Notes: generated by a model not told the origin, from the sequence alone. DNA of 64,000 nt from Alphaproteobacteria bacterium (GCA_043765375.1 JAYUJH010000035.1:7348-71347), one strand, 5' to 3'; numbered from the stretch's first letter, positions 21,726 to 63,704 are shown. A program made the numbers and translations.

Positions 21726-21896
21726 ATGAAACATTTGAAAAAATTAATTAACGATGAGTCTGGTGCAACTGCAATTGAATATGGTTTGATCGCAGCTCTG
21801 ATTTCAGTAGCAATCATTGCTATAGTAACAACGCTTGGACAAAGTTTGACTTCAACATTCACTACTGTTAATGAAGGTCTGCTATCTACTCAATAA
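21726..21896 (+). CDS. flp: Flp family type IVb pilin (small ORF absent from the ORF track)
   Basis: 56 aa, MKHLKKLINDESGATAIEYGLIAALISVAIIAIVTTLGQSL.... It has the Flp motif G/ATAIEYGLIAA and is followed by a terminator. Confidence 0.8.
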   Translation: MKHLKKLINDESGATAIEYGLIAALISVAIIAIVTTLGQSLTSTFTTVNEGLLSTQ

Positions 21897-21954: not shown

Positions 21955-22109
21955 GATCTGAGATTAGGCTCTAAACTTATGCCCCGAACTAATTCCTTGA
22001 AATAATTTTCTAATATTATATCTTAAAATAATGACTCAAAACAATGGGTTGCAATGTTTTTGTTCGCATTTTCGCCTATATATTTCTATAAATATCCGCA
22101 TTTTTTATA

Positions 22110-22244
22110 TAGTGATTCCTATTTTTAATTGCCGATTTTATCGGTCATTAAAAATTAGGATAAATCACTATAAATATATGAGAGATAGTGCTTTCTAATT
22201 TTATTCACTTGAAAATAACAAGTAAATAAAATTAGAAAGTACTA
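22110..22244. mobile_element. 135-bp double-hairpin MITE-like element (copy 1), flanked by TA/TA
   Basis: It forms two consecutive imperfect palindromes. Its termini (tagtgattcc...gaaagtacta) and core (tttttaatt-N-gatttNatc-N-attaaaaa, gatagtgctt) are shared with the element at 44227-44360. Confidence 0.5.
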
Positions 22245-22309
22245 TATATTTGATTGCAAATTATCGCAAAATCATATTAATTATATTCAATTTATAAATT
22301 GGTTGAATT

Positions 22310-22519
22310 ATGTTATATTTGTCACGAAAAATCGGAGAATCTATTGTTGTTAATAATAACATAATAGTGACTGTAACAGAAATTAAAGGCAACATGGCGA
22401 AACTTGGATTTTCATTTCCATCTGAGGTTAGCATTTTGCGCAAGGAAATATACGATCGCATCAGTGCCGAAAACGCCTCCGCCATGAACTCAGATTTTGA
22501 TATGATGCTTGGAGATTGA
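22310..22519 (+). CDS. csrA: Carbon storage regulator CsrA
   Basis: 69 aa. MLYLSRKIGESIVV...VTVTEIKGNMAKLGFSFPSEVSILRKEIYDRI aligns by eye with E. coli CsrA. Confidence 0.88.
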   Translation: MLYLSRKIGESIVVNNNIIVTVTEIKGNMAKLGFSFPSEVSILRKEIYDRISAENASAMNSDFDMMLGD

Positions 22520-28466: not shown

Positions 28467-29621
28467 TTATGCTGCTCTTCCACTTGACATTATCTTATTA
28501 ACTCCTTGTGATTGAGCGAATATCTGGTCATTGGCAGGTTGAAGTTGTGTTAGATTTCCAGATGATTGAGCAGTTCGTTCAGCTTCCTTATTCTGATGAT
28601 TATTATGTAGCACAATTCCACCAACAACGGCTAACGTTCCAAGCACTGCTGCACCAACTTTTACTGATGTCGGCAAATTGTTGACCTTGGTTCCTAAAGA
28701 TTTTGCGGTTTCCGCTGCTTTTTCCTTCCACCCTCCTTTTGCAACTGATTCGGTAACGGCTTCTGCAACTTCATCTCCGTTTTGTGATACAACTTTTGCA
28801 ACGTCATCTTTTATCTCGTTTGTGACTACTTGTTTGGTTGCTTCCCCCATTTTTTCCAAGCCTTCGGTTACAATTCCCTCAACAGGCGGAAGAGGATTTG
28901 AGACTTTTGGAACAGCAGATTGTGCAGCGTCTACTACGTTATTAACTGCTGCTGTTGCACCATTTGGCAAGTCTGAGGCTAAATCGGTTTTAACGTTAGA
29001 CCATTGCTCCGAATTTGCATTTCTAGGAGAAATACCAATCGCTTCTGCTCCTTCTGTTAATTTGGTCGCATTGGCTGTAAGATCTGTTGCTACTTCAGTT
29101 ATTATTGCTGGTGCGGCAGGGGGTTGGACGGAAGCAATATTGCCAGCAGCAACTTCTGTAATCTCACTAATAGCGGTTTGCGCAACTGCGTGGGGGGGGG
29201 GGGTGGTATTGCTAACAATATCAGTAGCAGCATTACTTATATTATCTACTGCACTGCTATTAGCAATAGTCTGCGGAAGTGCTTCGGATACAGTGCTGGC
29301 GGCTTGAGTTGCTTTCTTTTGCAAATCACTAACCACTTGACTTTGCTCGTGAAGAATATTTCTAACCGCGCTGCTAAAACCATTTTCTGTTTTTAACAGT
29401 GTTCCGCTATAATCTCCAACATCATTTATTTTTGTAAGGGCTTCTGAAATTTCTGGGCTTCCTTCAAACGCTTTTAACAATTCTGGATTTGTAAAAACTT
29501 CTTTGAACTGTTCGTTTTGCACACCAGAAAGCGTCTGTAATTTCTCATAATCGCTTATGTTTTGTCTTGAAGCAAGGCTTATTAATTTTTTAATAACTTC
29601 TTCAGCAGGTTCTATTTTCAT
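28467..29621 (-). CDS. Hypothetical Ala/Thr/Val-rich tail-anchored protein containing a C12 tract
   Basis: 384 aa with no signal peptide. A single TM lies near the C-terminus (VGAAVLGTLAVVGGIVL). I recognise no domain. It is inserted between hisF and hisA. Confidence 0.55.
   Translation of the reverse strand: MKIEPAEEVIKKLISLASRQNISDYEKLQTLSGVQNEQFKEVFTNPELLKAFEGSPEISEALTKINDVGDYSGTLLKTENGFSSAVRNILHEQSQVVSDLQKKATQAASTVSEALPQTIANSSAVDNISNAATDIVSNTTPPPHAVAQTAISEITEVAAGNIASVQPPAAPAIITEVATDLTANATKLTEGAEAIGISPRNANSEQWSNVKTDLASDLPNGATAAVNNVVDAAQSAVPKVSNPLPPVEGIVTEGLEKMGEATKQVVTNEIKDDVAKVVSQNGDEVAEAVTESVAKGGWKEKAAETAKSLGTKVNNLPTSVKVGAAVLGTLAVVGGIVLHNNHQNKEAERTAQSSGNLTQLQPANDQIFAQSQGVNKIMSSGRAA
29192..29203. 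repeat. G12 (C12 on the coding strand) homopolymeric tract inside the CDS
   Basis: Counted directly. It encodes TPPPH within ...SNTTPPPHAVAQ.... Confidence 0.95.
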
Positions 29622-41048: not shown

Positions 41049-42179
41049 ATGATAATAGAAATTGGTGAAACCCTCAAAAATAATATTTTGAAAGATGAAG
41101 CATTCACATTAAAATGGCGTGATGTGTTCACGGTTGATGAATCTAGTTTCAAAAACAAAGCTGATTTCAACACTTTGATTGAACATTTGGATAAAGCTCA
41201 AGGCACTGTGGTGGGGCAGCAATTATTCCATAAAATTATTCCACAAAATAATTCAGAGGGAGAGGGGAGCAAAGTTAAAATAGCTCATGGTGATTCAGCA
41301 GCTTATGATGCAAATCAAAGGACTATATTTTTCAATACGAAGGAGCATAAAAACAACTTCAACTTAGATGAAAAAGGAAATGCTCACCCTTTTGGTAACT
41401 CTTTTGTGGGCTTGATTCATGAAATGGGTCACGCCGCTTATTATAATACAAAAAATCTGTCAGATATGTTACAATTAGATAGTAAAAAACTAGATGGAAT
41501 TATCAAACAAACATTAATGAATATTAATGACAAACAAGAATCTTTTGGATTTGATGAACAAAGTTCTTTTTTTCAGGGTTTGACCAGTCAGCAGCAATCT
41601 GCATTAAAAGAATTGGAGCAAGCTAAGCAAAACGGAGTTATGCCTATTGAGTTTCAGACTATGCTAGAAGCCAGAAAAGAAATATTATTCTCAAATGCGA
41701 CACTAAAACAAAGTTATGAATTAAATCAAGAAATAGAACAAACTATATTGAAGGCAGAATCCTCGGCAATGCTACCTGAAAATAACGTTGCCCTTGAAAT
41801 CGCTGGTGATAAATCTGCTGCTCATAAAAATAGGTCTGTTTATGTTAATTCTATTGTAAGAACAGACAGCGAACTTCTAGAAAACCCAAACGTAACTATA
41901 ACTCCTCGTGAAAGAGAAAATCTTGACATTGAGGTTAAAAAAATCCAAGCTATTGTTGGTAAGCTACCAAACGCCTCGCCCGATAATAGGCTTCACTGGG
42001 ACGATCTTAATGAACCATTAAAACCAAATAACTCCATGCAGCATTTCATACCACCAGAATTGCAGCAGCAATTGAGCGCAATTAGTTCTGGTGCGGGATT
42101 TAATTTTAAGGATATTAAAGAAGTAGCATTGCTTAATTCGCAATCAGTATTGCCAGCAAGCAATGCAATGTCTTTATAG
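41049..42179 (+). CDS. Hypothetical protein with an HExxH zinc-metalloprotease motif
   Basis: 376 aa with no signal peptide. HEMGH lies at 41418-41432 in the context FVGLIHEMGHAAYY. I recognise no other domain. Confidence 0.55.
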   Translation: MIIEIGETLKNNILKDEAFTLKWRDVFTVDESSFKNKADFNTLIEHLDKAQGTVVGQQLFHKIIPQNNSEGEGSKVKIAHGDSAAYDANQRTIFFNTKEHKNNFNLDEKGNAHPFGNSFVGLIHEMGHAAYYNTKNLSDMLQLDSKKLDGIIKQTLMNINDKQESFGFDEQSSFFQGLTSQQQSALKELEQAKQNGVMPIEFQTMLEARKEILFSNATLKQSYELNQEIEQTILKAESSAMLPENNVALEIAGDKSAAHKNRSVYVNSIVRTDSELLENPNVTITPRERENLDIEVKKIQAIVGKLPNASPDNRLHWDDLNEPLKPNNSMQHFIPPELQQQLSAISSGAGFNFKDIKEVALLNSQSVLPASNAMSL

Positions 42180-43245: not shown

Positions 43246-43590
43246 ATGAACACAATAACATTTGATACTCACCAATTTGTGAAGAAGTTGCAGGCGAAAG
43301 GTATATCTGAGGAGCAATCAGAGGCTATTGTTGATGTGGTTAAGGAATCACGCAATGACGCTGTTAATTCACTTTCCACCAAATCCGAGATGCAGCAATT
43401 CAAATCTGAGCTAAAATATGATATGTCACTGCTTGAAGGGCGGCTTGAGGCTCGGATTAAAGAAGAAATTGCTGGAGTGAAAGCTGATATTGCCACCGTG
43501 AAATCAGATGTTATATTATTAAAATATGGAATGGGATACTTAATCGCAGCGATAACGGGGCTTGGAATTAAAACAATATTTTTCGGGTGA
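43246..43590 (+). CDS. DUF1640 (CCDC90-like) coiled-coil membrane protein, paralog 1
   Basis: MNTITFDTHQFVKKLQAKGISEEQSEAIVDVV...LSTKSEM...; the C-terminal TM is GYLIAAITGLGIKTIFFG. I chose the ATG at 43246. Confidence 0.7.
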   Translation: MNTITFDTHQFVKKLQAKGISEEQSEAIVDVVKESRNDAVNSLSTKSEMQQFKSELKYDMSLLEGRLEARIKEEIAGVKADIATVKSDVILLKYGMGYLIAAITGLGIKTIFFG

Positions 43591-43600
43591 AACATAAATT

Positions 43601-43912
43601 ATGAACACTATAACATTTGATACTCACCAATTTGTGAAGAAGTTGCAGGCTAAGGGAATATCCGAGGAGCAATCAGAGGCGATTGTTGATGTGGTTAAGG
43701 AATCACGCAATGACGCCGTTAATTCACTTTCCACCAAAGCGGAGATGCAGCAATTCAAATCTGAGCTAAAATATGATATGTCACTGCTTGAAGGGCGGCT
43801 GAAAGAGGAAATTGCTAGTGTGAAAGCTGACGTTACATTGCTAAAATATGGAATGGGTTACTTAATTGCAGCGATAACTGGGCTTGGAATTAAAACAGTT
43901 TTCTTTGGGTAA
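43601..43912 (+). CDS. DUF1640 (CCDC90-like) coiled-coil membrane protein, paralog 2
   Basis: Its first ~70 aa are nearly identical to paralog 1. The heptad region is shorter. Confidence 0.7.
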   Translation: MNTITFDTHQFVKKLQAKGISEEQSEAIVDVVKESRNDAVNSLSTKAEMQQFKSELKYDMSLLEGRLKEEIASVKADVTLLKYGMGYLIAAITGLGIKTVFFG

Positions 43913-43922
43913 GACATAAATT

Positions 43923-44252
43923 ATGAACACGATAACATTTGATACTCACCAATTTGTGAAGAAGTTACAAGCGAAAGGAATATCTGAGGAGCAATCAGAG
44001 GCGATTGTTGATGTGGTTAAGGAATCACGAAATGATGTTGTTAATTCACTTTCCACCAAAGCGGAGATGCAGCAATTCAAATCTGAGCTAAAATATGATA
44101 TGTCACTGCTTGAAGGGCGGCTTGAGGCATGGATTAAAGAGGAAATTGCTAGCGTGAAAGCTGATGTTACATTATTAAAATATGGAATAGGTTACCTAAT
44201 TGCAGCAATCACAGGGCTTGGAATTATAGCAGTTTCACTTTTTAATTACTGA
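43923..44252 (+). CDS. DUF1640 (CCDC90-like) paralog 3, C-terminus replaced by a MITE insertion
   Basis: The N-terminus is the same. After GLGI the reading frame runs into the inserted element, giving IAVSLFNY*. The ancestral end KTIFFG* survives at 44362-44382. Confidence 0.65.
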   Translation: MNTITFDTHQFVKKLQAKGISEEQSEAIVDVVKESRNDVVNSLSTKAEMQQFKSELKYDMSLLEGRLEAWIKEEIASVKADVTLLKYGIGYLIAAITGLGIIAVSLFNY

Positions 44253-44360
44253 TTTAATCAGGATTAAAAAGTGATGTACTGCTATATTCTTTAATGATAT
44301 AGTGCTTACTTAACTTTTAATTTATCATGAAATGATAACAAATTAAAAGTGAAAGCACTA
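44227..44360. mobile_element. 134-bp double-hairpin MITE-like element (copy 2) with TA target-site duplication
   Basis: The terminal inverted repeats are tagcagtttcactttttaatt / aattaaaagtgaaagcacta. The flanks ggaatTA|...|TAaaaca reconstruct the uninterrupted ggaattaaaaca seen in paralogs 1 and 2. Confidence 0.7.
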
Positions 44361-44431
44361 TAAAACAATTTTCTTTGGGTGAAAGCTGAAATATCAAAAT
44401 ATCAAACACCAAAACATATACCTATAAAATA

Positions 44432-45562
44432 TTAAAACCCAGTTTGTGGGATTTTTTCAGAACGATTAACCCAAGCATTAATCGCCAAGCCAAATGCCGC
44501 CAAAATACTTATCATGTTAGATCCACCATAGGAAACTAGGGGCAATGGAATGCCAACAACGGGCAACATACCCATCACCATGCCAACATTGACGAATAAA
44601 TGCAGGCATAACATTGCCGCAACGCCATGCGCCATCAGCGACCCAAATAATGAAACATTATGGTAAGCTATTCCAATAATCAGCAAAATCAGGCAAGTAT
44701 ATCCCAAAATTAAGGCGAAACTACCAATAAAACCAAACTCTTCCGCTAGCACCGAGAAGATAAAATCTGTTTGTTTTTCGGGCAGAAAATTAAGTTGCGT
44801 TTGTGAACCTTGCAGCAAACCTTTTCCCGTTAATCCGCCAGAACTTATGGCGATGATTGATTGCGAGATGTTATAACCCGAACCAAGTGGGTCACTATCG
44901 GGGCTTAAAAATGTCATAACTCTACGTTTTTGATAATCATGCATGGATTGCCAAGCAACGGGGGCGGCGCAAGCAACTAACATGATTGCGATGATGAAAT
45001 ATTTGCGGTGAACGCCAGCAGCGAACAGCAACCATGTTACCATTGCGCATAATAAAGTTGCAGTGCCGAGATTTGGTTGCTTCAAAATCAATCCAACTGG
45101 AATGAGTGTAATTAAGGCGGGAATACCCAGATGCAGCACACCATTATTTTTCACGGGTGGAAAATTATGCAAATAACGTGATAATGCTAATATAGTAGCA
45201 ATTTTTGCCAACTCAGATGGTTGAATGGTGATAAATCCGAGGTTAATCCAACGTTGCGCTCCCATACCAATATGTCCCATAATTTCAACTATCACCAGCA
45301 ATATTATGACTATAGCATAAATCACATAAGCATAGCGCATCAATAGATGAATTGGGATTGAGGCGATGATAATCATACTAACTGCCCCAGCGATAAAACG
45401 CATAATTTGCGGTATCGCCCATGTGCCAATAACTCCCCCCGCAGCGGAATATAAGGTGATGAACCCCACTCCCGAGATTGCAAAAATCAGTGCAAGCAAC
45501 GGCCATGGCATATTGCGCATAGCATAGATGATGTTATTAACAATAGAACCGCCAATCATCAT
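44432..45562 (-). CDS. rodA: SEDS-family peptidoglycan glycosyltransferase, RodA-like
   Basis: 376 aa and polytopic. IQPSELAKIATILALSRYL and PLPLVSYGGSNMIS match the SEDS family. The true start may be the internal Met at 45520. Confidence 0.75.
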   Translation of the reverse strand: MMIGGSIVNNIIYAMRNMPWPLLALIFAISGVGFITLYSAAGGVIGTWAIPQIMRFIAGAVSMIIIASIPIHLLMRYAYVIYAIVIILLVIVEIMGHIGMGAQRWINLGFITIQPSELAKIATILALSRYLHNFPPVKNNGVLHLGIPALITLIPVGLILKQPNLGTATLLCAMVTWLLFAAGVHRKYFIIAIMLVACAAPVAWQSMHDYQKRRVMTFLSPDSDPLGSGYNISQSIIAISSGGLTGKGLLQGSQTQLNFLPEKQTDFIFSVLAEEFGFIGSFALILGYTCLILLIIGIAYHNVSLFGSLMAHGVAAMLCLHLFVNVGMVMGMLPVVGIPLPLVSYGGSNMISILAAFGLAINAWVNRSEKIPQTGF

Positions 45563-46662: not shown

Positions 46663-48288
46663 TCATATATCAAGTCCTACTTGCACATTTCTACTTTCTT
46701 TGGTAGCTTTTTTGAAGCCGCTAGAATCAATTAATGGAATATGAGGCTTTGCTCCGTTCAATAAATCAGTGATAGTGAATATTTGCATTTTCGGATATTT
46801 ACCATATTCAGTTTCATAGTAACCAAGTTTAGCTGCCTCTGCAATCATTGGTGTGGTGGGTGACACAAGCGTTATAAATATACCAATTTTTGCTCCTTCA
46901 CGCTCCACCACATGCCCCAAATCACGTATCATGGCAACTGAAACATTCTCTCCACCTTTTACTGAAATAATAGCAATTTCGGTGTTTTTATTATCTGGTT
47001 TGAAATGCACTAAACCATCAATTCCCCCATCTGCACCTTTCTTTTTGCCACCATAAGGCACTGCTTGCTTGATGAGTGAAATTGCCCACCATTGAAACTG
47101 ATATTTGTCTTTTTGCGCCAAAGCCCGTGCGCCTTCCAAATCTTTTGGCGTGCCATGCACTGTGAACCTCGCATCATTGAACGCATCATATAAACGTTTT
47201 TCAATTAGCGAGATAGCAAGATTGGTGATATCAATCCCAATCCACCTCCTACCCAGTTTTTCTGCAGCATGAATTGCCGTGCCACAACCACAAAATGGAT
47301 CCATCACCGTGTCACCCTCTTTGGAAGATGTGGCAATGATGCGCTCTAATAATGATACTGGTTTTTGCGTAGGATATCCGAGATATTCCTTTGCATTTGC
47401 GCCTAGTGGTGGAATGTCCGTCCAAATATTGGTTACTAACAACCCTTTTTGCTCATTTAGATAACGCTTTAATGTTAATCTTTTATAATATTCTGGATTG
47501 CCTTCTTTATCTGCTGGATAATTAACTCTACCCTCATCGTGTAGTTGTTGCATTGTATCACGTTGATAACGCCAACCTTTTTTAGGATATCCATAGCCTT
47601 TCCATTCATACATCATATTGGGGCGTGGGCTAGGGCTTGACATATTATCTAACATATAAACGCCACGCCCATCGCCATCATCAAAACGATATGATTTTTT
47701 GATATATTCAGGATTATGTTCATTATATTGCGGGTTAAAATAAATATCCTTGCCTTTGCTATAAAACAAAATAATATCCGAAACATTGGGATATTTATTT
47801 TTAGAATCATTATGCGAGCCAGTTCGCTTCCATGTTATTTCGTTTCTAAAGTTGTTTTTGCCAAAAATACTATCCATTAATATTTTCAGATAATGTGAGG
47901 CGGTTGGGTCGCAATGCAGATATATGCTACCAGTTGGTTTTAGCACCCTATGCAGTTCCAGCAAGCGCACGCACATCATGGTGAGATATGCCATCATATC
48001 ATTCTCACGCAACAGCGCACGAATTGCCCGCAACATAGTAGATGCGTCAGTATAAGTGCTGTGCATAACTTGGTCAAACGCATCTTCGGCTTCCATGCTC
48101 CACACCCATGTATCTTCAAAGGCTTCAATCTGTGCTTGGCTTTGCAGAGTTTTGCTTGATTTGAACAATAGGTTATAATTCTTTTTAGAATTAAATGGTG
48201 GGTCAAGATATATTAAATCCACGCTATCATCTTTAATATGATTGCGAATAATCTCTAAATTATCACCGTAATATAATTCATTATTCAT
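46663..48288 (-). CDS. Beta-class N6/N4 DNA methyltransferase fused to a C-terminal Mrr-like (PD-(D/E)xK) nuclease domain
   Basis: 541 aa. Motif IV DLIYLDPPFNS precedes motif I DPFCGCGTAIHAAEKLGRRWIGIDI. The C-terminus GADGGIDGLVHF...IISVKGGENV resembles the Mrr catalytic core. Confidence 0.8.
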   Translation of the reverse strand: MNNELYYGDNLEIIRNHIKDDSVDLIYLDPPFNSKKNYNLLFKSSKTLQSQAQIEAFEDTWVWSMEAEDAFDQVMHSTYTDASTMLRAIRALLRENDMMAYLTMMCVRLLELHRVLKPTGSIYLHCDPTASHYLKILMDSIFGKNNFRNEITWKRTGSHNDSKNKYPNVSDIILFYSKGKDIYFNPQYNEHNPEYIKKSYRFDDGDGRGVYMLDNMSSPSPRPNMMYEWKGYGYPKKGWRYQRDTMQQLHDEGRVNYPADKEGNPEYYKRLTLKRYLNEQKGLLVTNIWTDIPPLGANAKEYLGYPTQKPVSLLERIIATSSKEGDTVMDPFCGCGTAIHAAEKLGRRWIGIDITNLAISLIEKRLYDAFNDARFTVHGTPKDLEGARALAQKDKYQFQWWAISLIKQAVPYGGKKKGADGGIDGLVHFKPDNKNTEIAIISVKGGENVSVAMIRDLGHVVEREGAKIGIFITLVSPTTPMIAEAAKLGYYETEYGKYPKMQIFTITDLLNGAKPHIPLIDSSGFKKATKESRNVQVGLDI

Positions 48289-56687: not shown

Positions 56688-56762
56688 AGTGAAACCTTGC
56701 ATATTTCTGCAAATTGTGTAAATTACGTTGCTATATTATAATCAAAATTGAGCAATTTTTTC

Positions 56763-59700
56763 ATGTCACAAACCAAACAGAATTATCCACAAGTGAAATC
56801 CGATGTTAGCTTTCCGCAGCTTGAGCGTGAAGTGCTAGATTTTTGGCAAAGAGAGCGGGTATTTGAGCAATCAGTGGCGATGCGTCCCGCTACAAAATCT
56901 ATGCTCCCTGCAATAAATGGTGATAGTAGCAATGCTTATGTGTTCTATGATGGTCCTCCATTTGCAAATGGGTTGCCACATCATGGACATTTACTGACTG
57001 GATATGTTAAGGATATGTTCGCCCGCTATCAAACAATGAAAGGCAAACGGGTTGAGCGACGCTTTGGTTGGGATTGTCACGGGCTGCCCGCAGAAATGGA
57101 GGCGGAAAAGCAATTAGGCGTATCAGGGCGAGCAAATATCATAAATTATGGGGTGGAAAAGTTCAATGCGCATTGCCGCACTTCTGTGATGGCGTATCGT
57201 AATGAATGGGAGGAATATGTTAATCGCCAAGCAAGATGGGTGGATTTTGAGAATGATTATAAAACCATGGATACGCCTTATATGGAGTCGGTGCTATGGG
57301 CTTTTGCGGAGCTGCATAAAAAGGGCTTGATCTATGAGGGGTTTAAGGTGATGCCTTATAGTTGGGCGGCAGAAACAGTGCTTTCCACCTCCGAAATCCG
57401 CATGGACGATGCCACAAGAGAGAAGGTGGACAAAGCGGTTACAGTTGCATTTAAGTTGAAAGAAGTTCCAAAAAAACTAAAAGAGCTAGCTGATAATTTT
57501 CAAAATGGTGCAGAAATATATTTATTAGCATGGACAACAACCCCGTGGACATTGCCAAGCAATTTAGCGTTGGCGGTTAGTGAAAAGGTAAGCTACTCTG
57601 CCTTTGAGTGTTTCCATAAAAATGGAAAAATAGATTGGTTTATACAATATTGTAATGCAGGTAACCTTTCAGCTGCAAAAGAATTATTAGAAAGAAATAC
57701 AAACTGTGAAATTGGACAAATAATTGATATAACTCATGCGAATGAAGATAAGTTATCTTCTTTGGTTGGACTTCAATATGAACCATTATTCCCCTATTTT
57801 GCGAATCACCCAAACGCTTTCAAAGTGCTTGATGGCAGTGATTTCATTGAGGAAGGGGCGGGGACGGGGATTGTTCACATGGCGCCCGCATTTGGTGAAG
57901 ATGATATGCGCATATGCGCCGCAAACGGAATTGAGGTGGTAATTCCAGTTGATGGCGAAGGAAAATATAGCGATGCAATTTATGATTTAACCAGTATTCA
58001 AACCAAGCGTTGCATTTTGCGCACTCCAACTGATTCAGATGCAAGCAATTTTTTGCGGTTGCATACTAATCCACAAGTCATGGCAACGGTTAATGATGGC
58101 TTGATGAGTGAAGCGGAGGCAAATGAAGATTTCGCCCGTAATTTGGCGCATTTCAAGCAACATAGTTATGGTCAATTTGCGGTTTATAATCGTGATAATG
58201 GTGCATTTATGGGGCGTGCGGGTTTGAGTTTTTCTGCGCAAACTGATGGATTTCCCGCCCGTCCAACCTTGCGTTGCGCACTTCTGCCTGAGTTTTGGCA
58301 TGGTGGATATGGTGGTGAGTTATGCGCTGCTGCAATAGAATATGGCTTTAATTATTTGGGTTTTTCGGAAATAGCGGGCGGTGCATTGGAGAATAATCCA
58401 CGTTCACATGAAATGATGAAACGTTTAGGCATGAAATATGTGCAAGATGTGATGTTCAAACGTTCTATGGGACCTTATTTTTTGATAACTAAGCAGGATT
58501 TTGTTGGCGATAATGCTATTATAGTAAATATTTTTTCTCTTAAAGGGTTAAATGTTATTCAAGAAACAGAAAAATTGAATAAATTGGAAAAAGAAGACCA
58601 ACAAAAATATGAAAAATCCAAATATAGTATTAAAAACTTAAATCAGTTTGGGCTTGCAAATATAAGAATTGCTAAATGGCTTAATGACAAAGGCGTTTTA
58701 ATTAAAGAAGATAATGATTTTAGGCATAATTATCCGCATTGCTGGCGAACTGATAAGCCGATTATTTATCGTGCGATGTCTTCATGGTTTGTTGATGTGC
58801 CAAAAATCAAAGATCGTATGATTGAGCTAAATCAGCAAATAAACTGGATTCCTGAACATGTGAAAGATGGTAGATTTGGCAAATGGCTTGAGGGCGCAAG
58901 AGAATGGTCAATTAGTCGTTCACGTTTTTGGGGCTGCCCAATCCCCGTATGGCGCAGTGATAACCCTGAAAATACGCAATTATATGTGTTTGAATCAATT
59001 GCTGAGTTGGAGCAATTTTTTGGCGTTAAAGTGGAAGATTTGCATAAACCATTCATTGACACATTAACCAAGCCAGACCCAACTAATGCGAAATATACAT
59101 TATCACGTGTTGATGAAGTGTTTGATTGCTGGTTTGAATCTGGCTCAATGCCTTATGCGCAGGTGCATTATCCGTTTGAGAACAAAGAATGGTTTGAGGC
59201 TAACTTCCCCGCTGATTTCATTGTGGAATATGAGGCACAAACACGGGGCTGGTTTTATAATATGATGGTGCTATCTGTTGCATTATTTGACCGTATTCCG
59301 TTTAAGAATTGTATTTGTCATGGCGTGGTGCTGGACGGTGAAGGGCGAAAACTTTCCAAAAAGCTCAAAAATTATGTAAGCCCGATGGAATTATTTGATG
59401 AATATGGCTCAGATGCGCTGCGCTGGTTTTTGATGTCATCAACCATTATGCGGGGCAATGAGTTGTTTCTTGACGCTGAAGGTGTGTTTATCCGTGATGC
59501 TGTGCGCCTATATATTAAACCATTATGGAATGCTTACAACTTCTTTTGCCTATATGCAAATGCGGACGGAGTTGTAGCTAATTTTGATTTAAGTTCGGCA
59601 AATATAATGGATAAATATATTTTGGCGAAATTAAAGGCGTGCGTGGGGGCAGTTGAGATTGCGCTTGATGCTTATGATACGCCAACGGCTTGTGCGATCA

Positions 59701-60890
59701 TCACCGCATTTTTGGAGGTGCTAAATAATTGGTATATCAGGCGCAATCGTGGCAGGTTCTGGGGTGAAGCGGTGGATAGCGATAAAATATCCGCATATAA
59801 TACGCTTTATTCTGTGTTGCATGTGATGTGCCGATTGGTTGCACCTTTATTGCCGCAAATCAGCGAGGTGATTTTTGCGGGGCTGATAAATGGCGGTGAT
59901 TTTGAACGCAATCACAGCGTTCATTTAACAGATTTTCCAACTGAGTTAGCACAAATGGCAGATGATGCGAACATAATGCAAGCGATGGATCGGGTGCAAG
60001 ATATATGCAATACCGCACATGCAATACGAAATGAGGTGAATATCCGCACCCGTCAACCACTGAGCAAATTAACAATTTATGGCGTGAAGATTAATGATAA
60101 TGCGGATTATTTTAAGGCGTTGATAGCTGATGAAGTGAATGTGAAAGAGGTTATGTTTTCTGATGATTTGGAGGCGGTTGCAACCCGCAACCTGAAAATC
60201 AGTTTTCCATTAGTTGGTAAGCGACTACCAGCTAAAATGAAAGCGATTGCAGCAGCAGCAAAATCAGGAAATTGGAAAATAATAGATGCAAATCAAAATA
60301 ATATATCTCATAATAGCGATAATGTATCAGTTAAAGAATGTCATAATCTTAACATGCAACGTGATATTAAAGGAAAAAAAATGATACATAACACTTTTTC
60401 TTATATCACAAAGTATTCAATTGAAATTGAAGGTGAAGTTTTGCATTCCAATGAATATGAGTTCACATTGCAATCAACCATTAAAGATGCAAAAGATGTT
60501 GCCGTGCGTTCGCTCCCTGCGCAAGATGGTTTGCTAGTGCTGGATACTAACTTAAGCGAGGCACTGATAAGCGAGGGGGTAGCGCGTGATGTGGTGCGGT
60601 TGATCCAGCAATCACGCAAAGATGCGGGGCTTAATGTGGCAGACCGTATTGCATTAATGATTGATGCACCCGCAAATGTGCTAAAAGCCATCACCGAGCA
60701 TCAGGGTTATGTGTGTGAACAAACATTAACGGAGAGCCTAATTTTTGGGATAAGTTCAAATGTTGGAACAAGCGCAACGCAACATTCCGCAAGCCATAAT
60801 TTGGGTGATGCAATTGTTGCTTTATCATTTAATGTGGCAGCGAATGATGCGAATATTAAGCAAATAAACGTTAAGCAAGTGGCGGGGTGA
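56763..60890 (+). CDS. ileS: Isoleucine-tRNA ligase (type 2) carrying an embedded GNAT acetyltransferase domain
   Basis: 1375 codons from the ATG at 56763. HIGH is PHHGH and KMSKS is KLSKK. [26 protein letters not shown] and [21 protein letters not shown] are present. A GNAT-like ~165 aa lies at roughly 57990-58500. Confidence 0.9.
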   Translation: [1375 protein letters not shown]

Positions 60891-61436: not shown

Positions 61437-62531
61437 ATGCGCATCATATTTATGGGAACGCCAAACTTTGCATTGCCAGCTTTGCGTGCATTAATGGCGA
61501 GCGAACATGAGTTGGTAGCGGTTTATACTGCACCGCCTCGCCCTGCCAATCGTGGTAAGAAAGTTAGTCGTTCGGCTGTGCATTTGTTGGCTGAGGAAGC
61601 ATGTTTGCCAATATTTACGCCATCATCATTGCGGGGGGCGGAGGCGCAAGCGGAGTTTGCGAGCCTAAATTGTGATATTGCGGTGGTGGTAGCATATGGG
61701 TTGCTGTTGCCACAAGCGATTTTAGATACGCCAAAGTTTGGTTGTTTGAATATCCACCCGTCGGATTTGCCTCGTTGGCGGGGGGCCGCTCCAATTCAGC
61801 GAACCATTATGGCGGGTGATGCAACCACTGCTATTTGTATTATGCAAATGGATTCGGGGTTGGATACTGGGGCAGTTTGGAAACGGCTTGAGTTGGCTAT
61901 TCCTCAAGCAATCACGGCGCAGGAATTGGAGGTGGAGCTGGCGGAGAAATCTGCGGACTTATTGCTGGAAGTTTTGGCGAAAATTGAGGATTTGGAGAAG
62001 GCTGGAGAGTTGGAGAAGTCTGGGGCGGGCGGTGATTCACCAATTCCACAAGCGCAAAATGGCGTGACATATGCGCATAAAATTGAAAAAAGCGAATATT
62101 TATTGCGTTTTGATATGCCCGCTCAATCAGTGTTGAACCATATAAATGCGTTAAGCCCGTATGGTTATGTGATGATAGGAGAAGAGCGGGTGAGAATTGT
62201 GAAAGCGGAGTTAGTTGTTGGCAGTGCTGCTAATGTTACGGCTCGGAGTGCTACGGCTCGGGCTGGTGAGTTTATTAATTCTCAATTCCATATTCAATGT
62301 GAAGGGGGGCAATGTGGAAGTGGGCGTGGAAGTGGGCAATGTGAAGGAGAGCGGTCTGCCACGGCTGGTGGTGCAATAGTTACTAATGAAGATTTAGCTA
62401 TTAAAGCTGTTCATTTTGAAGGGATTGCTCGTCAAGATTCTCACTTAACTGCGATTGCTCCAATCATTGTGCAACGTGAGGGCAAAAAACCAGTTCACAT
62501 TACTGATTTTCTGAATGGTTTGCGGGCGTGA
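61437..62531 (+). CDS. fmt: Methionyl-tRNA formyltransferase with repeat-derived insertions
   Basis: MRIIFMGTPNFALPAL, NIHPSDLPRWRGAAPIQR and C-terminal REGKKPVHITDFLNG match Fmt. It is 364 aa, against about 310-315 typically. Confidence 0.9.
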   Translation: MRIIFMGTPNFALPALRALMASEHELVAVYTAPPRPANRGKKVSRSAVHLLAEEACLPIFTPSSLRGAEAQAEFASLNCDIAVVVAYGLLLPQAILDTPKFGCLNIHPSDLPRWRGAAPIQRTIMAGDATTAICIMQMDSGLDTGAVWKRLELAIPQAITAQELEVELAEKSADLLLEVLAKIEDLEKAGELEKSGAGGDSPIPQAQNGVTYAHKIEKSEYLLRFDMPAQSVLNHINALSPYGYVMIGEERVRIVKAELVVGSAANVTARSATARAGEFINSQFHIQCEGGQCGSGRGSGQCEGERSATAGGAIVTNEDLAIKAVHFEGIARQDSHLTAIAPIIVQREGKKPVHITDFLNGLRA

Positions 62532-62560
62532 TTAACTTGCAAAAATGACTATATTGATTC

Positions 62561-62728
62561 AGAACCTGTATTCACAGCTTTTAGCTCCGCAGCCCTTACG
62601 GGTCAAAATGCCTGCAACATTTGATTTTTTGCGCTTCCGCTGCTCATGTATTTCTATATACACTGCGCTGCGGTTCTCAAAAATACAAACGTTTCGGCGG
62701 TTTTCAAAAACTGTTAATACTAGGTTCT
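62561..62728. repeat. 168-bp element bounded by ~22-bp imperfect inverted repeats
   Basis: The left end agaacctgtattcacagctttt matches the reverse complement of the right end, agaacctagtattaacagttttt. Internal CCGCAGC/GCTGCGG motifs are present. Confidence 0.6.
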
Positions 62729-62844
62729 AAACAATGTAATTCTTGAAGTTAGAGTATTTCTTAAAGTTTGAGGTTTTCTTAAAGCTCAAGGTTTATTCAT
62801 ATTTGCATAAACCAAAAAATAACATAAACTTAAACCCAACAAAA

Positions 62845-63480: not shown

Positions 63481-63704
63481 TTAAAAAATATAATAGTTTA
63501 TATATATATTTATAGCAATTTTCTATGAAGGAATTATGAAGGTTCACGCTTTTTTAACCTAAACTCTGCTATTTATATAAAATAAATATTTCTGCACTAG
63601 ATTATGTTCTTATTTCGCTGATGCGCTAGCGAAATCACAACGCAATCTATTATATATATTACAATACACACTATCATATAATATAACTCACAAAAGGTTT
63701 TTTT

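Follow-up and report, generated by a model that had tools for sequence, protein, structure and literature searches.

A twin-hairpin element, very probably a non-autonomous MITE, with TA duplication at the 3' end of a CCDC90-like gene in an alphaproteobacterium

Introduction

[quoted passage not shown] Here, we describe a 134-bp segment consisting of two successive hairpins, which is inserted close to the 3' end of the third of three tandem CCDC90-like genes in a stretch of 64,000 nucleotides from an alphaproteobacterium (GCA_043765375.1, JAYUJH010000035.1:7348-71347; this whole stretch is termed the window, and all positions are counted from its first letter). Very probably, we are dealing with a MITE in the broad sense, a transposable element that is non-autonomous. 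It appears to belong to a previously unseen and apparently low-copy family with TA duplication, the insertion event as such being of an ordinary kind.

Among the described systems, those that duplicate a TA dinucleotide are closest in behaviour. Elements of the IS630/Tc1-mariner type target TA only, duplicate it, and need about 24-30 bp at each end (PMC2170065). RUP is a bacterial TA-duplicating MITE that is tied to IS630-Spn1; with its length of about 107-134 bp, the absence of coding capacity, stops in all frames and a non-autonomous nature, it resembles the element described here (PMC2229807). RUP differs in that its short terminal inverted repeats match a resident IS630-family element and that about 108 near-identical copies with a single stem exist, whereas we find two copies of about 70% identity with two hairpins each. 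The Correia/NEMIS elements of Neisseria (about 107-155 bp) also duplicate TA, and their insertions can interrupt or modify coding regions (PMC2229807, PMC10969869). Their terminal inverted repeats of 24-26 bp pair end to end, they have outward promoters as well as an IHF site, and none of these features was detected here. Correia ends read TATAG(C/T)..., and the similarity to the present element ends after TATAG(T/C)G.

In terms of architecture, the nearest described counterparts are the CcrM-associated intergenic repeats (CIR1-4) known from Caulobacter, Brucella and further alphaproteobacteria, in which two long inverted repeats likewise form two arms with a linker rather than one stem; they are of similar size (about 110 bp, giving a range of about 110-135 bp together with the present element), have TA termini and carry stops in six frames (PMC2229807). 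These repeats have been reported between genes only, with neither a target duplication nor mobility known for them, whereas one of the present copies is intragenic with a TA duplication; in addition, CIR repeats have a conserved GANTC methylation site at the terminal loop (PMC2229807), which the present element lacks. Base composition differs as well, the present element having only 24% G+C. To our knowledge, the mode of spread of CIR repeats has never been established. CIR is nearest by architecture and RUP and Correia are nearest by behaviour; because the GANTC that defines CIR repeats is missing, we do not class the element among them.

Two further groups deserve comparison. Rickettsia palindromic elements (RPEs) are small palindromic repeats (105-146 bp) from a host-associated alphaproteobacterium and are likewise found inside protein genes, but they have an open frame, add a peptide to the protein in frame and form one long stem-loop, whereas the present element is closed, truncating and two-armed. 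The IS200/IS605-derived PATE elements and the REP/REPIN-RAYT systems share with it that the mobile unit is defined by hairpins and that structure is kept through compensatory change. In those systems, the ends are asymmetric, the target is not duplicated, the stems are short and G+C-rich, and GTAG/CGTC tags are present (PMC3733652), in contrast to the symmetric, TA-flanked ends and the long A+T-rich stems seen here. REP/REPIN palindromes comprise 20-40 nt and occur as inverted pairs, while the present hairpins have 58-61 nt with 24% G+C, are arranged in tandem and show ends of the type (T/G)ATAG.

The insertion in the third gene of the CCDC90-like array

The three CCDC90-like genes are arranged head to tail on the plus strand at 43246-44252, and their PF07798 assignment stems from public gene calls. 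Paralog 1 (43246-43590, +; PF07798/DUF1640) encodes 114 residues with the tail ...GLGIKTIFFG, and paralog 2 (43601-43912, +; PF07798) encodes 103 residues with the tail ...GLGIKTVFFG. Their 3' ends, GGAATTAAAACAATATTTTTCGGGTGA and GGAATTAAAACAGTTTTCTTTGGGTAA, respectively, can be written in common as GGA ATT AAA ACA (A/G)T(A/T) TT(T/C) TT(C/T) GGG T(G/A)A, which corresponds to GLGIKT(I/V)FFG and the stop codon, and both represent empty sites within the same genome. Paralog 3 in its present form (43923-44252, +) encodes 109 residues with the translated tail ...GLGIIAVSLFNY and ends with IAVSLFNY, and these eight codons together with the stop codon are mostly derived from the element.

In paralog 3, the string GGAAT is followed by a TA (44225-44226), the 134-bp segment (44227-44360), a second TA (44361-44362) and AAACAATTTTCTTTGGGTGA (44363-44382). 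A comparison with the paralogs identifies the two TA dinucleotides as left and right copies of a duplicated target, as paralogs 1 and 2 have one TA at this place while paralog 3 has one on each side of the insert, and the filled junction exceeds the empty one by exactly 134 bp and a further TA. The insertion point is a TA within codons 101-102, seven codons ahead of the ancestral gene end. These last seven codons, stop included, are found unaltered at 44362-44382 (+) as AAA ACA ATT TTC TTT GGG TGA, encoding KTIFFG and a stop; they are now stranded and untranslated. The operon-like array still contains two empty sites, and the end of the gene remains readable in its displaced position. The original prediction, a note made on the basis of this DNA, had stated that an insert at these positions splits GGAAT-TA-AAACA and duplicates the TA, that the ancestral 3' end survives downstream, and that the open reading frame enters the element to end with IAVSLFNY; reading the three paralogs and translating the third one confirmed all of this.

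In exactly this form, the chimeric protein of paralog 3 is encoded on five contigs, one of them an ENA contig of 492 kb (ERZ27314324, k141_232442). A Logan contig from a different run (SRR14689464) carries rodA, the whole element, both TA dinucleotides and a 126-bp part of paralog 3, and it has 0 mismatches to the window. Since the insertion is the same at every base in independent runs and assemblies, an assembly artefact is excluded.

The family of these three genes has very few relatives. A protein search with paralog 2 among about 5.8 billion proteins returned 8 relatives, 3 of which are the paralogs of the window itself. The 5 relatives from outside the window derive from other samples and have 47-68% identity. 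As seen in the alignment, four of these five end with ...(G/I/V/L)(I/L)(K/E)(T/A/I)IFF(N/A/S), as paralogs 1 and 2 do, while IIAVSLFNY is found in paralog 3 only. Also at the DNA level, the homologous site is unbroken in two outgroup loci (...ATTATCAAAACAATATTTTTCAATTAA and ...GTGATTAAGACTATATTTTTTGCATAA). The outgroup tails and the unbroken outgroup DNA therefore indicate that the tail of paralogs 1 and 2 is ancestral and that the 134 bp were inserted after the triplication. An intact allele of paralog 3 was not found in the protein collection, where the relevant 90% clusters have one member each, and the insertion is fixed as far as sampled.

The genes of the array are separated by spacers of 10 nt each (aacataaatt and gacataaatt). 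Apart from indels of 7 residues (ADIATVK) and 4 residues (EARI/EAWI) in the predicted coiled coil, the differences between the paralogs are mostly synonymous.

Structure of the element and its second copy

The copy in paralog 3, copy 1 (44227-44360, +; 134 bp, 24% G+C), is composed of hairpin A (44227-44284, +; 58 nt, TAGCAGT...ACTGCTA), a linker of 15 nt (44285-44299, +; TATTCTTTAATGATA) and hairpin B (44300-44360, +; 61 nt, TAGTGCTT...AAGCACTA). Its minimum-free-energy fold consists of two successive hairpins that comprise nucleotides 1-58 and 74-134, with a calculated energy of -44.8 kcal/mol as RNA compared to -18.1 +/- 3.1 in dinucleotide shuffles (z = -8.75, with 0 of 200 shuffles equal), and folded as DNA it reaches z = -10.18 relative to shuffles. 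The element has 23-24% G+C as opposed to 39% in the window. All six frames of copy 1 contain stops, and a forward reading in any frame reaches one within 0-9 codons.

A BLAST search of the window with the copy 1 insert detected one other full-length match at 22122-22244, from which the unit could be read out to 22110-22244. This copy 2 (+, 135 bp) is intergenic, with a Flp pilin gene (21726-21896) on one side and csrA (22310-22519) on the other; it is flanked by TA dinucleotides at 22108-22109 and 22245-22246, and it contains a hairpin A of 61 nt (22110-22170, +) and a hairpin B of 59 nt (22186-22244, +) that is preceded by a 15-nt linker. The two copies are about 22 kb apart, share the order A-linker-B, and have the same orientation, co-directional with the flanking genes (n = 2). 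In a global alignment, 99 of 142 columns are identical (about 70%), with z = 8.65 compared to 2000 shuffles. The comparisons of A with A (z = 6.0) and B with B (z = 6.8) outscore those of A with B (z = 3.2-4.8), which argues for copying of the whole A-linker-B unit rather than of a single hairpin; hairpins A and B nevertheless appear to be distantly related to each other by sequence. The left flanks of the copies have only the TA in common (GAATTA versus TTTATA). As a side observation on copy 2, the Logan contig SRR14689465_66106 terminates precisely at the apex of its hairpin B at window position 22210, for which a k-mer common to another site, a drop of coverage at the hairpin, or chance are possible causes.

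In copy 1, the outer ends, TAGCAGTTTCACTTTTTAATT and the reverse complement of AATTAAAAGTGAAAGCACTA, agree in 20 of 28 aligned positions, and in copy 2 they do so in 18 of 27. The arms within the hairpins match better, with 22-24 positions or 71-89% of the aligned length, compared to 18-20 positions or 67-71% between the outer ends. All eight hairpin-arm termini read TAG(T/C)(G/A), and seven of these eight adjoin a TA, the exception being a GA at the inner end of hairpin B in copy 2. The outer junctions have the form TA-TAG...CTA-TA in both copies, and each of the two copy 1 hairpins is flanked by TA on its own. For matching to the ends of insertion sequences (IS), the end sequence of the element is TAGTGCTTTC.

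The differences between the copies are distributed in a way that maintains the stems. In the minimum-free-energy structures of hairpin A, 17 pairs are unchanged, 7 are changed on both sides and 0 on one side; in hairpin B, 14 pairs are unchanged, 5 are changed on both sides and 1 is changed from G-C to a G-T wobble. In total, 12 compensated two-sided differences stand against 1 one-sided difference, and about 2 pairs are lost. Because of the compensated stems and the stronger matching within the hairpins, it is the hairpin that is the conserved feature of this element, beyond mere terminal inverted repeats. With respect to the original prediction, the two consecutive hairpins are borne out by the folding. 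The terminal inverted repeats that it noted do exist, but to speak of them alone understates the anatomy, as each end is a complete hairpin with a better internal match. Its analogy to the in-frame insertions of Rickettsia palindromic elements does not hold, as stops are present in six frames and the protein is truncated rather than fused.

Searches for further copies and for a mobilizing enzyme

The genome span examined for copies and transposases comprised the window and 10 kb on either side, in total about 83.5 kb. Within this span, a profile built from the two copies detected no third copy. Solo hairpins were not found either: a structure-based scan for hairpins of 40-80 nt with TAG...CTA ends in the window and about 19 kb of flanking sequence returned the four hairpins of the two copies as the only ones that are A+T-rich and flanked by TA. 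A lone hairpin of 52 nt at 63598-63649 (TAGATTATG...CAATCTA) has the TAG start and the CTA end in common with these, but it is not flanked by TA and has no sequence similarity to the element.

According to the Pfam lists of the gene calls, the approximately 83.5 kb contain housekeeping genes and no transposase domain, so that the predicted absence of a transposase from the window extends to the neighbouring 10 kb on either side. A separate Pfam scan of nine unannotated proteins yielded SURF1 and a weak Peptidase_M91 match only and again no transposase, and neither a Y1_Tnp gene nor a cognate IS could be found in this span.

Public collections were searched with sequence patterns. In JGI metagenomes, the pattern for the loop of hairpin A, TTTTTAATTNCNGATTTNATCNG, matched 76 loci, all of them by chance, as every single one was rejected by the profile search. 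Many of these loci represent the conserved coding motif PYPITFLITDLISEIYGK, which we take to be that of a YhhQ-type transporter. A hairpin-B pattern that fits both copies gave 0 matches in 185,579 species-representative genomes, and the present genome must therefore be outside of that collection. The pattern of linker and hairpin B produced 25 chance matches in IMG/VR, and a blastn search of PLSDB with the element gave no match. In 80 loci with RodA relatives from species-representative genomes (1.39 Mb), neither the element nor a CCDC90-like gene was found beside rodA.

Other functional assignments were likewise negative. At the gathering threshold, Rfam recognized one tRNA in the window and no other family, and a permissive search over each copy gave nothing but sub-threshold matches to generic miRNA-precursor hairpins. 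Consensus scans of the element for promoters and terminators revealed no terminator-like sites and promoter-like sites not above chance. A conserved GANTC is not present: copy 1 has 0 such sites, and the 1 site in copy 2 lies in a stem and is not conserved.

Mechanism and alternative explanations

The suggestion of the original prediction that a small mobile element entered a TA and replaced a C-terminus is supported by the second copy at 22110-22244 and by the empty sites in the paralogs and the homologues. With 134 and 135 bp, the element is within the 50-800 bp that are typical for MITEs; it is non-coding, it has no transposase of its own, it has terminal inverted repeats of at least 10-15 bp, and its target site duplication is evident from a filled and an empty site. 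A discrete 134-bp unit has entered the TA in paralog 3 after the triplication and duplicated this TA; it would be mobilized in trans by a transposase that is presumably encoded elsewhere in the genome. As part of this overall MITE explanation, the likeliest mobilizer would be a TA-specific DDE transposase of the IS630/Tc1-mariner type, because that family inserts at TA only and duplicates it. We give this assignment somewhat better than an even chance; it is the TA duplication, and no other feature, that points to this family. Each hairpin could then be a back-to-back pair of transposase-binding ends. The compensated stems suggest that selection acts on hairpin formation in active master copies, where it would maintain mobility, or that the arms are homogenized with each other, or that the enzyme reads structure.

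Several observations weigh against a MITE of this kind. The outer ends, at 18-20 of 27-28 positions, are weaker repeats than the arms within the hairpins (22-24 positions), and a compensated drift of the stems is not expected of a sequence-specific transposase-binding site. The TA duplication is demonstrated at copy 1 alone, as copy 2 is flanked by TA but lies in A+T-rich surroundings and has no empty site for comparison. A cognate IS did not turn up in the approximately 83.5 kb, in which only two copies are present, and with the patterns used none was detected in public collections. Also, an assembly with k=31 passes straight through copy 1, from which it follows that no sibling with a common 31-mer exists in that sample, and this speaks against a recent burst. 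A multi-copy status throughout the genome is an extrapolation, and that two copies per approximately 83.5 kb translate into tens per genome is a guess.

It is rather unlikely that the element belongs to a class of twin-hairpin alphaproteobacterial repeats, perhaps together with the CIRs, in which the enzyme recognizes hairpins while the integration still duplicates TA. If true, copy 1 would be the first proof by filled versus empty site that two-arm repeats transpose, and the 12 compensated stem changes would mark an undescribed structure-reading, TA-specific transposase. Twin hairpins with compensated stems are the sole feature of this locus that goes beyond routine, and they will matter only if a genome-wide family and its mover emerge.

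As an alternative to movement by a DDE transposase, the element could have been moved as single-stranded DNA by a hairpin-recognizing HUH/Y1 enzyme of the PATE (IS200/IS605) or REP/RAYT type. The hairpins would then be left and right recognition structures, insertion would take place 3' of a short target that ends with TA, and the right TA would be a cleavage site of the element itself. One hairpin per end is an established hallmark of IS200/IS605 ends, and the conservation of structure over sequence, as seen in the 12 compensated changes and in the better match within the hairpins than between the outer ends, would agree with such an enzyme, as would the common orientation of both copies, co-directional with the flanking genes (n = 2). 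However, the ends are symmetric, with TA-TAG...CTA-TA at both outer and three of four inner ends, whereas IS200/IS605 elements are asymmetric and have distinct left and right cleavage sites. The hairpins also extend to the termini and leave no space for sub-terminal guide and cleavage tetranucleotides, and with 24-26 bp, the A+T-rich stems are far longer than hairpins of the IS200/IS605 or REP type. The REP tag GTAG/CGTC is absent, no Y1_Tnp gene is present in the approximately 83.5 kb, and a fixed tetranucleotide target is not seen, as the left flanks share the TA alone, which with n = 2 is a weak argument. We therefore regard this single-strand mechanism as unlikely.

Even less probable, and in our view very unlikely, is that the twin hairpin is a functional module that has been spread by recombination, be it a structured RNA, a transcript-end stabilizer or terminator, or a protein-binding site like those of the CcrM-associated CIR repeats. 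The compensated stems could well reflect a fold under selection, terminators would be useful at both positions, with convergent genes on either side of copy 1 and a gene on either side of copy 2, and the alphaproteobacterial CIR repeats have a similar layout of two arms and a linker (PMC2229807). On the other hand, the base-precise insertion of copy 1 into a coding sequence with a 2-bp duplication is a signature of transposition, neither an Rfam family at threshold nor terminator-like or above-chance promoter-like sites were detected in the element, the T-rich tract that follows hairpin A in copy 1 is absent from copy 2, and there is no conserved GANTC. Practically to be dismissed, with nothing found in its favour, is finally the view that the 134 bp are ancestral and were deleted from paralogs 1 and 2, or that they arose in an assembly. 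It would need two independent deletions that each removed exactly the element and one TA and restored the frame. Four outgroup homologues have the unbroken tail, which excludes the scenario that the original prediction had named as its own refutation, and an equal unit with equal boundaries exists at an unrelated locus; an artefact would not be identical base for base in independent runs and assemblies.

Effect on the protein

Translation of paralog 3 runs 8 codons into hairpin A before it reaches a stop, by which KT(I/V)FFG is replaced with IAVSLFNY. The new tail is hydrophobic, and the sole charged residue is gone. The uncharged hydrophobic run at the C-terminus increases from 14 to 22 residues and the mean hydropathy from 1.4 to 1.7, so that a segment resembling a membrane anchor is, if anything, predicted to be lengthened. 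In the first 66 codons, the paralogs, the third one included, differ by 7-8 synonymous versus 1-2 non-synonymous changes, and in the last 31 codons by 8 versus 2. The paralog 3 gene probably still works, judging from these codon patterns, in which selection before and after the insertion is inseparable, and the insertion would have been tolerated as near-neutral. This tolerance may be explained by the element having by chance supplied a compatible hydrophobic tail. The locus provides a clean example of a tiny non-coding transposon that rewrites the C-terminus of a protein without destroying it.

Host lineage and further features of the window

The convergent neighbour of paralog 3 is a gene of the rodA/ftsW family (44432-45562, -), which is of relevance here only as context and for placing the source organism. 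The best relatives of this RodA have 45-57% identity and belong to 'Alphaproteobacteria bacterium UBA998', several metagenome-assembled genomes (MAGs) named 'Rickettsiales bacterium', Ferrovibrio, Micavibrio and Thalassospira, with the best match of 57% shared by 'Alphaproteobacteria bacterium UBA998' and the 'Rickettsiales bacterium' MAGs. All of the 80 loci with RodA relatives are distant, and the twelve best loci that were checked have 47-66% G+C. As the RodA matches are distant, the source must be an alphaproteobacterium that is uncultured, branches deeply and has no closely related sequenced organisms. A host association of this organism is hinted at by TrcR, a Surface_Ag_2 porin, the Flp pilin and a protein resembling M91 effectors, and a MITE family is now added for such a deep-branching, uncultured and probably host-associated lineage.

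The M91-like protein just mentioned has 376 residues (41049-42179, +) and matches Peptidase_M91 (NleD-type effector) weakly with E = 8e-5, slightly below the Pfam cut-off. At a distance of 2.3 kb from copy 1, a protein of 541 residues (46663-48288, -) is encoded in which an N6_N4 DNA methyltransferase domain occurs together with a weakly matching restriction-endonuclease domain (Mrr_cat). Between two His_biosynth genes, a run of 12 G (29192-29203) is located inside an open reading frame of 384 codons without Pfam match; this run may represent either a tract subject to phase variation or an error of the assembly in a homopolymer.

Three independent assemblies stop at 62605, 62701 and 62838, within the intergenic stretch 62532-62844 between fmt and a Gly/Ala-rich open reading frame of 207 residues, and no repeat of this stretch was detected in the approximately 83.5 kb. 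Fmt itself (61437-62531) has 364 residues in the window and 359 in the ENA contig, and the exact protein of the window is found on one Logan contig only. It contains the unusual Gly/Ser/Cys-rich insert GGQCGSGRGSGQCEGERSATAGG, which may be length-polymorphic. At about 56760-60890, a protein of 1375 residues unites an isoleucyl-tRNA synthetase with a GNAT acetyltransferase domain in one fusion.

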